A stretch of 64,000 nucleotides of DNA from Longimicrobiales bacterium (GCA_965219445.1 CBDCNQ010000002.1:224001-288000); one strand, 5' to 3'; shown: positions 59,025 through 64,000, counted from the stretch's first letter. Notes: a model not told the origin generated them from the sequence alone. A program made the numbers and translations.

Positions 59025-59057
59025 ATAGCCGGAAGCGTTAAATAAAAGTAGTTAGAC
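59025..59057 (+). other. Putative integron attI-like site
   Basis: A-rich TTAAATAAAAGTA followed by core GTTAGAC (GTTRRRY); no upstream attC palindrome seen. Confidence 0.55.
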
Positions 59058-59339
59058 CGAAACGCGGGTCGATCCTACGGGTGTCCATCGTGAGTCGTGA
59101 ACTCGCCGTTGCGTGACACGGGTCTCCGAACCGTAACCGGGCAGCACGCGACTCTGCGGGGCTAGATGACTCAGTTGGAGGGCGGTCACGGAGCTGGGCA
59201 AAGACCGAGGATGTTCCGGTGGACCCGGCCCGACCATCGCTGTCCACCCGAGCCGGTTGTGGCGGTTCTTGAACCGCCTATCTTGCCTAGGTTCGGTTCC
59301 GGGAACGGATGGCGTTTCTCAAGCTGGGAGACTGGAGCC

Positions 59340-61663
59340 TTGATTTGGCGCGAGTTGAGGCGGCGGAAGGTCGTCAGGGTCGTGGTCGCGTATGCGGTCG
59401 TCGCCTGGGGGCTGCTGGAGGTCATCACGACGGTCGAGGAGCCGCTTAACCTCCCAGCGTGGACGGACAGCCTGGTCATCGTGCTGCTCGGGCTCGGATT
59501 CGTCGTGGCCGTCTTCCTCGCCTGGGCCTACGAGCTCACCCCGGACGGGATCGCGCGCGAACGGCCCACGGTCTCGGAGGGGCCCGCGACCGCCGCACCT
59601 CGATTCGTGAGCTACGCCGCGACCGCCCTCGTGGCCGCGCTGCTCGGCGCGGCCTCCTATTCGTTCCTCGTGGGGGACAGGGATCGAGAGTGGCTGGAGC
59701 GCGTCGCGCTTCCGGACATCGATGCGCGTCTGGAGGTGGCAGATTGGCACGGAGCATACGCGCTCGCGAGGGAGGCGGAGGCTCGGCTTCCGGAAGCGCC
59801 CGAGCTCCGGGAGCTATGGCCTCGTCTGGCGTGGCGAACGACGATCGGATCCGATCCGGCAGGAGCGATCGTCTCATACCAACCATTCGATCGTCCGGAA
59901 GACGAGTGGGTGGTCCTGGGTCGCACGCCGCTGGAGGACATCCACTTCCCCTACGGCCTATCCCGTCTCCGGCTCGAACTCGACGGCTACCGCACGTTGA
60001 AGCGCACCGTCGGGGGCGGGCACGTCAACTGGGAGACGCTTGCGGCGCGATCAGCGAACAGTGCGCTCTCGCTGCTTGTGGGACCGGAGACGTTCGTGCT
60101 CGATACGGAGGAGACGCTGCCCGAGGGGAAGGTCCGCGTCGCCGGCTGGCGCCTCAACCTCGACGGCGAGTCCATCCTTCTTCGGGAGTACTTTCTCGAC
60201 CGATACGAGGTCACGAACGCACAGTTCAAGGAGTTCGTCGATGCGGGCGGCTATCAGCGGTCGACCCTGTGGGATCCGGTCGTCGTCGATGGGGACACCG
60301 TTCTGTGGGACGAGGCGCGAACCCTGTTCACGGACCGCACCCTTCAGCCTGGCCCCAGCACGTGGGAGGCGGGGGACTATGCCGCGGGCGAGGACGACCT
60401 CCCCGTCTCCGGCGTCAGCTGGTACGAGGCGGCCGCCTACGCCCGATTGGTCGGCGAAGAGCTCCCGACCGCGCATCACTGGCGGCGCGGCCTCGCCATG
60501 GCGACGCTCCCGTGGCTCCTGCCCGCAAGTAACTTCGACGGTGAGGGGGCCCGGTCCGTCCTGGAGAGTCGTGCCATGAGCTACACAGGTGCCTTCGACA
60601 TGGCCGGTAACGTGCGGGAATGGACGGCCACACAGCTCGGCGATCAGTACGTCGTCCTCGGCGGCAGCTGGAACGATCCGTACTACATCGTCGGAGAGGC
60701 CAGGATAGCCCCGCGGCCCCTCCGCTGGACCGGTCCCCGGGAAACGGCTTCCGGCTCGCTGTGACCGACGAGGAGCCAGAGGTGGCGTCGCGCGTACGCG
60801 CTCCTGTCACCGAGGCCCAGAACCTGTCCCCGGGGCTCATGCGACAGCCGGTGTCGAACCAGGTATACGCCGCGTGGGGAGGGCATTTCGACTACGACCG
60901 GGGGCCGCTCAACGTCGTCTCGGACGAGCCGGTGGACTCGCGGAGTTGGACCCGGGAGCGGATCACCTTCGATCCCGGCTACGACGGCGAGCGCATGGTG
61001 CTCTACCTGTATCTGCCTACGATCGGGTCACCTCCGTTCCGAACAGTCGTGTACTGGCCGGGCTGGGACACGTTCCGTCTCGAATCCGTGAACGAATACT
61101 TCGCAAAGCAAGCCGACTTCCTCCTCAAGAGCGGACGGGCCGTTGCCTTTCCCGTCTATCTCGGGAGCTTCGAGCGGGGCGACGGCACAGGCAGAAGGCC
61201 CGCCTTCAACACGACGGCTTACCGGGACAACACGATCGCGGGCGTCAAGGATCTACGCCGCACGCTGGACTACCTCGAGACCCGTCGCGACATCGATCAC
61301 CGATCCTTCGCGTACCACGGCTACAGCTGGGGAGGCGTGAACGGCCCCACGGCCCTGGCGCAGGAGCCCCGCCTCCGTTCGGCCGTCATCTCCGTGGGCC
61401 CGCTTCCGGAGCTGGGCGCGACGCCCGAGATCGATCCGATCAACGCGCTTCCCAGGGTCGAGGTACCGCTCCTATTGCTGAGCGGCGAGTTCGACGCCAT
61501 AGCTCCGATGGAACAGTCGCGCCGGTACTTCGAGCTCGTCGGCACCCGAGAGCAGCAAAAGAAGTGGGTGGTCACGCACGGAGGTCACTTCGTCCCGCGC
61601 GACGTACTGATCCGCGAGACCCTGGGCTGGCTCGACCGTTACCAGGGGCGGCCCGGGGGGTAA
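59340..61663 (+). CDS. Membrane-anchored FGE-sulfatase-domain / alpha-beta hydrolase fusion (frameshift near 60700)
   Basis: WRELRRRKVVRV TM leader; DRYEVTNAQF, PVSGVSWYEAAAYA, DMAGNVREW; then GYSWGG, SGEFD, GGH catalytic-triad motifs. Confidence 0.8.
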
Positions 61664-61777
61664 CACGGAGGGATCCACGCTCTCGCTTCAGCACTGATTC
61701 GAGCACAACCGCATAGTACTGTTAGTAGGCGGACGCAGGGGCGCCGACTCTGCAGGTCAGAGGGTTTCATCGTTTCG

Positions 61778-63475
61778 GTCTAACACTTATCAGGCCCCCG
61801 GAGTCAAGAGCGCGCAAGTTCCCTCCTCCGCGCTGCGGAGCGGCGCCGTAAGCGGAGTGAGCATCGGTCGCTGAGTCCTCTGACTTGGTTTCCGTTAGCA
61901 GGTGCGAGCGCAGTGAGCTCTGCACCAAACACTTATCGAGGTTTAACCGCCGGATCTCCCTCGAGGCGAGCTCGAAGGCGGCGGAGCAGGAGCCTGCTGG
62001 CCGCTCCTACGACCTAGAAATTCATCTGTGCCCTCGTGCCGTCCGACTCCATTCAAGGAGAGCAGGCTCGGGCCGTGAGGCGGCGGGCCAGTTAGCTCCG
62101 GGCTCGGGTGAGGGGCAGAGTCCTGAGTGAGACCGACTCGATGTGTGGGGAGCGGGAGGAGGCGTCCAATCAAGCGAGGCGGCTGTCAGGCATCCGGTGC
62201 CCGCTCGAGTTAGAAATCAAGGCTCACAACCTCCCCTCCCCGTCAGGTGCGTGTATAGAAGCGTTCGGTGTCGAATGCCTCCCGGTTCTTGAGCATGAAG
62301 TAGGTGGCGCGTCCGATGCGAGCCGCAAGGATGCTGAGCGCCTTGCCCTTGCCGTGGCGGCGCGCGAGCCTCTTGAGATGGGCCTGGCCGCGGACGTTGT
62401 CGCGAAGGAAGAGGACGGCCGCCTCACTGAACGCCCACTTGAGGTGTGCGTTGCCGATCTTGGCTCCTCCGCTGCCGACTCGCTTGCCTGCACTGCGGTG
62501 CTCGGGCTTGGCGAGTCGACAGTAGGAGCTGAAGCGCTGCACCGTGCTGAAGCGAGCGATGTCGTGGATCTCATAGAGCAGCGTGAGGGCCAGGATGCGG
62601 CCAATGCCGGGGATGGTTCGCAGCCGCTGCAGCGTGTCGTGGTCGTGGACGCGGGCTTCTTCTTCGATCGTGCGCTCGAGTTCTCGGATCACGGGGTCGA
62701 AGCGATCCGCGAGTGCGAGATCCGCCTCGATGGTCCTCTGGATCATGCGATCGTCGAATGCCTGGGCCAGTCCCTCGCGGTTCTTCTTATAGAGGAGCTG
62801 ACCGGAGGGCCGAGGCAGGTTGTACTGATGAAAGGTGTTACGGACGTGGGCGAGGAGTTCGCCGCGCTTGCGTACGAAGTAGAGTCGGCGCCGGAGCACA
62901 TCGCGCGTGGCTCGCATCTGCGGGGGATAGACGTAGGCCACCGGAAAGGCACCCCCGCGCAGCAGCACCGCCGTCTTGTGGGAGTCGATGTGGTCGTTCT
63001 TCGCCTTGGCCCCATGGATCGCCTTCATGTAGAGCGCATGGCCGAGCACGAAGGGGATCTGCTCGCGAGCACAGAGATCGGCGAGCCAGTACCAGCAGAA
63101 GATGCACTCGCTGCCCACGACGAGATCTGAACGGTACGGCTCGAGGGCGCGAAGCAGTGCCTCGCGCTCACAGCGTAGCCTCTTGTGTAGTCGTATCTTG
63201 CCCTGGCAGTCCAGGATACAGAGGTAGAGCGTGCGAGCGTGAAGGTCGATGCCACAGTAGTATCGATGCTGGCCGGTGTAGAAGCGCATGGTTCCCCTCC
63301 TGGGTTGGATGGATCGAGCGTCGCGCTCTGATCATTCCGTCCTCTCTCTGAGAGGTCCAGGAGGGGGCCTGCATGAGTATCAAGCGATTGCTCCTGTCGC
63401 GTTAGACATCAGGCTCGCGCGCTTCGCTTCCGGTCGGCATTTTGGACGCGCAGCAGAATCGCAAGTCCGTTAGAT
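61778..63475 (+). other. attC site (~101 nt reconstructed: 61778-61784 + 63382-63475) split by IS110
   Basis: GTCTAAC AAGCGATT[G]CTCCTG[T]CGCG ... CGCGCAGCAGAATCGC AAGTCC GTTAGAT: RYYYAAC, GTTRRRY and two extrahelical bases. Confidence 0.85.
61785..63381 (-). mobile_element. IS110/IS1111-attC-type element, copy 2 (transposase 62243..63289)
   Basis: Same length and transposase as 50103-51699; one C/T difference noticed near 61833. Confidence 0.92.
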
Positions 63476-63496
63476 GGCATGTACGCTAGTCTCTCC

Positions 63497-64000
63497 ATGA
63501 AGCGAAGAACTGCCATACCACGACGTTCCGCGGCCGCCCGACACGTACACAGCAGGCAATGTCCTTAGTCGGTTCATGGACGGCCTGGAGTTCCGTTATC
63601 GATGGGCCACCGAGGGGCTGACCGATCAAGATCTTGCCTTTCGGATCCGTGACTCGGCTCGCAGCACCAGTGAGACACTCGAGCACATCTATAACATCGT
63701 CGAGATGACCGAGTACGCGTTTTCCGGCGAGACCTACCTGCTGCCAGAACAAGACGTGGATCTGTCTGTCTCCGACTTGCGGCGTCTCACGCTGGATCGT
63801 GTGAGCAGAATCAGTGGCCTACTGAGCGGCCAAAATGGGGAAGACCTCGAGGCACTCCAGGCCCGCTTCCAGCTAGGTGACGAGGAGCACACCTTCCCCT
63901 TTTGGAATACGGTTAACGGCACGATGTCCGATGCCATGTATCATGTAGGTCAGGTGGTCAGTTTCCGGCGAGCCTCAGGGAACCCAATCGATCCAACGGC
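63497..64000 (+). CDS. DinB-like protein in second cassette (partial; probable 1-nt frameshift just after ATG)
   Basis: Manual translation: EELPYHDVPRPPDTYTAGNVLSRFMDGLEFRYRWATEGL...ETLEHI...DAMYHVGQVVSFRRASGNP. Confidence 0.7.

Follow-up and report, generated by a model that had tools for sequence, protein, structure and literature searches.

A probable integron remnant headed by an attI site behind the rRNA operon of a Longimicrobiales bacterium

The cassette locus between the 5S rRNA gene and era

The window analysed, a 64,000-nt stretch (C2:224001-288000) of the 4.56-Mb assembly of a Longimicrobiales bacterium (GCA_965219445.1, here G000), was found to carry integron components without an adjacent integrase gene (intI) behind the assembly's only rRNA operon (rrn). 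Between the 5S rRNA gene and era lie an integron platform (the spacer that separates intI from attI in relatives), the attI itself, two cassettes and a single attC split by an insertion sequence (IS) (Table 1). The locus is probably what an integron left behind on losing its intI, now frozen and decaying. Related genomes, their contig loci and sequencing runs are denoted by G, L and X numbers, respectively.

Table 1 Features of the locus and of a second IS copy in the same window (window coordinates).
Feature	Position	Strand	Basis and remarks
5S rRNA	58694..58810	+	Rfam; sole 5S in genome; end of the assembly's only rrn operon
Intrinsic terminator	58818..58853	+	12-bp stem (-26.2 kcal/mol) plus U tract
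Integron platform lacking intI ('type B' intI-to-attI spacer)	58882..59050	+	Homology to G128 and G006
attI, crossover G/TT at 59051/59052	59030..59057	+	Homologues diverge directly after GTTAG; matrix rank
Cassette 1 body, ~2.8 kb with its attC	59052..61784	+	Pfam; G118 copy
attC R'' box, left part of split attC	61778..61784	+	Inverse core; G118 junction
IS110-family element, IS1111 type, 1597 bp	61785..63381	-	Pfam PF01548, PF02371
Remaining attC (L'', L', R'), crossover 63469/63470	63382..63475	+	Profile and covariance model
Cassette 2, DinB-like gene	63470..64000	+	In-frame ORF from 63576; ends 43 nt past window
Second IS copy (50103-51699) within cassette-end attC remnant	50096..51709	+	attC interrupted after 10 nt; copy lies upstream of rrn

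The DNA between the terminator and the first core site, at 59051, resembles loci of relatives that are not rRNA loci. The 150 nt ahead of 59051 share 78% identity over 152 nt with DNA located 46-196 nt 3' of the intI stop codon in G128 (E ~1e-30), where the homologue sits immediately 3' of an intact intI, and the platform is 80% identical to that of G006 over 176 nt. Similarity among 11 aligned platform copies stops at GTTAG. A purine-rich GTT[AG] site was recognized by eye 118-311 nt behind the intI stop in 20 of the 29 other intI loci of the family, and the matrix built from these by-eye candidates placed 59051 first among the 37,796 GTT[AG] sites of the genome, a rank that was kept when G128 and G004 were dropped. 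The same platform type heads cassettes with matching R'/R'' boxes (13 and 11 nt) and an attC in the metagenome contigs L140 and L146, and partial matches to the platform occur in marine sediment sequencing runs. Cassette arrays lie on the 3' side of intI in G000, G005 and G118. By its homology to the spacer beside the G128 intI and by the divergence directly after GTTAG, which marks the crossover, the A-rich site at 59051 is identified as an attI, as an earlier reading made from the sequence only had proposed in preference to attC.

No sigma-70 match was found in the platform and the cassette promoter was not located, though we infer that it lies within this interval. A hairpin was predicted at about 58949-59019, and a conserved RNA structure in the spacer was rejected, as none of its 21 pairs had compensatory changes. 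The 5' core of the platform occurs alone in G002, G004 and G007 (L069, L070 and L071), where it stands just upstream of one gene's ribosome-binding site and ATG, a hint that this core is a promoter.

Cassette 1 encodes a membrane-anchored FGE-sulfatase-like domain (FGE, formylglycine-generating enzyme), fused to an alpha/beta hydrolase (Pfam). These are the domains named in the sequence-only reading, while the single gene assumed there did not stand: a 5-nt insertion near 60697 splits it into open reading frames (ORFs) 59166-60764 and 60620-61663. The same cassette, 93% identical, is found in G118, a member of another genus, with an IS-free attC end and with the gene in a single 841-codon frame, which bears out the proposal that core and inverse-core sites bracket it. 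An IS has removed the 5' end of the G118 cassette, so its core site is not comparable. The cassette was rightly called unusually large, since it exceeds the ~2 kb quoted for the largest known ones in the text of Cury 2016 (PMC4889954).

The second cassette proposed in that reading is likewise present, with the reservation that its DinB match reaches 17.7 bits against a Pfam cut-off of 24.8 and that the expected start close behind the core is out of frame: the ATG found 23 nt past the second core, at 63498, is shifted by one base against the DinB-like reading frame, which has its first ATG at 63576. Downstream, an R''-like box without the remainder of an attC precedes era. Both cassette genes are frameshifted in this assembly. 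That the frameshifts are purely assembly errors was rejected, as contigs of run X4 hold the FGE insertion and those of X1 and X4 span cassette 2 without gaps, with the provision that X1 or X4 may itself be the source sample of the assembly. Among the matches listed, all from assembled contigs, there were no excised or IS-free alleles and no cassette-free joint.

The rebuilt attC, its insertion sequence and the integrase

As had been noticed, the 14-nt segments 59051-59064 and 61771-61784 are perfect reverse complements, and the pairing extends no further. Inverted repeats of this length are common, with 398 maximal ones at a spacing of 200-5000 nt in the genome; five of these start with GTT and only the 59051/61771 pair has a GTTRRRY core, the count being confined to the 398 and leaving out longer repeats with GTT inside. 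In this cassette family R'/R'' complementarity commonly runs to 11-14 nt, as in 15 of the 20 R'' sites examined, the window site included. A chance inverted repeat, or an attG insertion next to an A-rich stretch, was ruled out by the platform homology, the G118 junction and the matrix rank.

In silico removal of the IS (61785-63381) rebuilds a 101-nt attC with two extra bases, in agreement with the sequence-only reading, and the most convincing evidence comes from G118, which supplies the natural IS-free junction that this reading predicted. Against a profile made from 10 IS-free attC sites of other genomes, positions 2-100 of the rebuilt site score 90 bits, and a covariance model of 15 IS-free sites, from which the window's own was excluded, scores it at 89 bits. 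The site belongs to an attC family present in the intI-linked arrays of G005 and G118. Classical attC sites (attCaadA7 geometry) form an R''-L''-L'-R' hairpin with two extra bases and a 5-nt spacer on the R'' arm. The family attC shares all of these, but differs in its bottom-strand extra bases, C and A instead of G and T (here at 63390 and 63397), and in its R'-arm spacer, 8-9 nt (9 nt here) instead of 6. The bottom strand of the rebuilt site has a minimum fold of -19.2 kcal/mol against -18.4 for the constrained canonical hairpin, a gap of 0.8 (z = -1.5), and covariation within the family is modest, with double changes in four of 21 pairs (3/500 shuffles). The segment 63382..63475 is identical (93/93 nt) to an attC at C2:393757, in an intI-linked array 106 kb away, whereas other pairs among the seven attC sites of the genome share 77-94% identity and the attC of the G118 FGE cassette 83%. 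It is the only attC of the family between 5S and era; the next-best model match in the window plus C2:280-300 kb had 19.5 bits, so that the search for a further attC downstream was negative.

The IS transposase (62243-63289) is of the DEDD type and is followed by a non-coding region of ~460 nt 3' of the gene. Its sub-terminal inverted repeats are perfect over 9 bp (61791-61799 and 63363-63371) and fit the 7/3-nt extensions only when two outer mismatches are allowed. The element has 10 matches in the genome; among those listed, one end lies behind TAAC in 5/5 and the other before the attC L'' arm in 8/8, so that this is an attC-targeting IS1111-type element. As far as the text of Siddiquee 2024 (PMC11187229) describes the IS1111-attC group (ISKpn4, ISPst6), the DEDD transposase, 3' non-coding region, sub-terminal repeats and fixed insertion point near one attC end are common to both; the perfect repeat is 9 bp here against 11-13 there, and the likeness is one of description. 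Upstream of the second copy in the window, 49996-50087 matches a cassette tail of the G118 tRNA-Pro integron at 89%. In G005 and G084, a second IS110-family element occupies the R' GTT in attC sites of the family (L121, L078, L183).

As previously noted, the window contains no intI, and a test for a complete integron disclosed no adjacent intI at the locus; an intI relic in the interval was sought as well and none was found. The genome-wide search returned a single intI, at C2:398589-399521, 111 kb from the site. Its attI is of another type than 59051, and the assembly has no cognate intI for the latter. The encoded IntI reads intact, including the IntI insertion, and is 42% identical to G128 IntI, the two falling in different supported clades. 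The surrounding locus (L031, C2:384000-399566) comprises this intact-looking intI and, following it, an attI and an array whose attC sites are mostly occupied by the same IS1111 and by nested IS elements. In all, 66 tyrosine-recombinase matches and ~30 attC-like matches, many of them partial, were recorded on four contigs of G000. A third attI-like platform lies behind a tRNA gene (C3:148419-148530, site C3:148523), followed by a reversed pair resembling a toxin-antitoxin system by eye and by an IS.

Orphan platforms in relatives and the origin of the locus

The gene order 5S-era is shared among relatives. The gap between the two genes could be measured in 16 genomes, four more having been dropped as 5S or era fell outside the retrieved stretch, and ranges from 81 to 11,227 nt, with 81-365 nt in six of the 16. 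An attI and attC occupy it in three of the 16, all of the same genus (3/6): the platforms of G005 and G007 are of the type of G000's own integron, while that of G000 itself is of the G128 type. Unrelated inserts occur there in G006, G118, G061 and G093, which suggests a site open to insertions in general. At two other loci intact and integrase-less versions were found. At tRNA-Pro, G118 has intI, attI and an array, and G005 has the same platform type with four attC sites and without intI; at a molybdenum-enzyme operon, G000 has its whole integron and G006 a platform without intI. The G118 rRNA locus was rejected as an intact ancestor, as its integron is the one at tRNA-Pro, ~210 kb from 5S. 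Other orphan platforms lie far from rrn, following a tRNA, xer or permease gene, and the left ends seen in orphan platforms range between -8 and +101, counted from the intI stop.

Several such platforms may coexist in one genome: G000 has three attI-like platforms and one intI, and in the close relative G005 six attI-like sites, which fall into at least three types, accompany a single intI lacking its N-terminus. No intI was found within 1.5 kb upstream of five of the six, so that G005 carries at least five integrase-less docking sites around its chromosome. A 2.5-kb cassette is present there in seven identical copies (L078:5896-8388, L199, L202, L205, L207, L208 and L209); it encodes an XerD-like recombinase and an IS91-type Y2 transposase, has its own attC-like hairpin and cassette-like bounds, and six of the seven copies sit precisely at an attI-like G/TT. 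Of 201 family genomes, 13 contain the cassette's 5' end, which begins with GTT in almost every case and often follows attI-like ends; the cassette was not found in G000. This shows that orphan attI sites of different types in G005 recombined recently, while the enzyme acting there is not shown, because the intI is truncated and the cassette encodes its own recombinase.

For the window locus, the pairs of intact and integrase-less integrons at single loci favour deletion of intI. On this reading an IntI would have loaded the cassettes, DinB first and FGE last; a deletion would then have taken intI and spared the spacer and attI, because both lie wholly behind intI in this architecture; and the IS1111 would finally have split the only attC. 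With its sole attC split, the FGE cassette is probably no longer excisable, and, given that and the divergence of the resident IntI, the site is probably frozen. Several observations weigh against this account. A whole integron is present in the 5S-era gap of none of the 16 genomes, the surroundings (~1.5 kb) of 30 family intI loci contained no 5S, and the three platforms at 5S-era, being of two types, would require that two separate integrons arrived and lost intI. No intI fragment was found in the interval or beside the other orphan platforms scanned, and no attC of this family around the G128 intI. The 5-nt FGE insertion is missing from contigs of runs X1 and X11, and the intact frame shows that the decay is recent or polymorphic. 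Finally, the identity of the 3' part of the attC with an intI-linked one points to recent exchange, by IntI or between IS copies, and the site may not be wholly frozen.

This last point, together with the intact-looking IntI, the third platform at C3:148523 and the identical cassette at six attI-like sites of a genome with one intI, would suit a satellite attI that is still live, with the genome's single integrase acting on it in trans and several docking sites sharing cassettes. We consider this unlikely: IntI enzymes prefer their own attI, and the one available is 42% identical to that of G128 and in another supported clade. Moreover, the G005 intI is truncated and the shared cassette may insert by its own tyrosine recombinase, the identical attC could stem from recombination between IS copies, and the contig matches listed included no cassette-free joint. 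Less probable still is that the array head (spacer, attI and first cassettes) moved in as a unit, by IntI secondary-site or IS-mediated recombination, and that intI was never here. The missing intI remnant and the two platform types at one locus agree with such a transfer, as does the position of the insert, which appears to lie inside a palindromic element that trails 5S in relatives, the 3' part of the element being behind cassette 2 here and ~110-150 nt behind the terminator in G005; cassettes with partial attI boundaries are also known, according to the text of PMC12901181. The variable left ends of orphan platforms speak against it, as does the right end, which lacks the full attC expected from attC-mediated integration, and the tRNA-Pro pair of G118 and G005 fits simple intI loss.

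[quoted passage not shown] The terminator was indeed located ~200 nt upstream of the first core site, on the same strand, a platform occupies this position in three of six genomes of the genus, and E. coli rrn terminators are read through, as far as the text of PMC8144298 goes. The array did not hold up, since there is one attC where at least two are required and the second cassette stops at R'' before era. The predicted terminator is strong, unrelated inserts share the gap, other orphan platforms lie behind tRNA, xer or permease genes, and both cassette genes are frameshifted, so that positioning for read-through is very improbable. If the cassettes are expressed at all, a spacer promoter would be a likelier source than read-through from rRNA.

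A wider proposal, which must be regarded as doubtful although somewhat less so than a satellite attI at this locus, is that these marine Gemmatimonadota keep a distributed integron: many live attI-plus-promoter platforms, loaded in trans by one recombinase, with an IS91-like element having its own attC and recombinase that docks into every attI. As attI lies behind intI, the integrase could be shed and platforms left at the ends of tRNA, rRNA and housekeeping genes.

Relation to known integrase-less clusters

A CALIN needs two or more attC sites, and attI is not searchable in most integrons, according to the text of Cury 2016 (PMC4889954). SALINs (single attC sites lacking integron-integrases) are by definition devoid of further att sites, with attG insertion offered to explain them (Loot et al., bioRxiv 10.1101/2022.09.11.507474), and intI loss and rearrangement are among the origins listed for SALINs and CALINs. 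In common with these classes, the locus has cassettes with attC, no nearby intI and an intI elsewhere on the replicon. It has the single attC of a SALIN and lacks an integrase, but the attI at 59051 sets it apart, as it is headed by a true attI platform. Having a single attC, it is not a CALIN; it is a feature of a known kind in a new form, an attI-headed, integrase-less, decaying two-cassette remnant.

Treponema-type integrons, as presented in the text of Wu 2013 (PMC3607928), share with this family an intI transcribed toward attI and all parts in one direction, and T. phagedenis has lost intI and kept attC sites; the family described here belongs to another phylum and has several attI platforms of different types per genome. 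Archaeal attI sites downstream of intI appear in the available text of PMC9668308. The cassette promoter (Pc) is generally embedded in intI, as stated in PMC8876359; spacer and attI would be separable from intI in this family, in which loss of intI leaves a whole attI platform since attI lies 3' of the gene. No orphan or multiple chromosomal attI, integron behind 5S or IS91-recombinase cassette was encountered in the open papers searched. Orphan attI sites are not a target of searches, and clusters of cassettes lacking an integrase are therefore taken for dead ends or for insertions off target. Although small and decayed, the present remnant gives a view of an architecture that standard tools miss: such clusters can here be shown to retain a genuine attI, with several in one genome, so that both the way CALINs arise and the use of foreign attI sites in trans become directly testable.

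Additional features of the window were recorded. The palindromic element (58870-58882) is made from the 5S 3' end and stands behind the terminator in many relatives (L076, L078, L187); in G146 and G006 it is followed by a second copy of the 5S end and terminator. A further transposase-like ORF (48331-49386), IS110-like by eye and without a Pfam match, lies between tRNA-Pro and tRNA-His. Last, the 23S rRNA gene (54562-58571) is ~1.1 kb longer than normal and contains a group I intron match (56540-56821) and a LAGLIDADG ORF (57115-57615).

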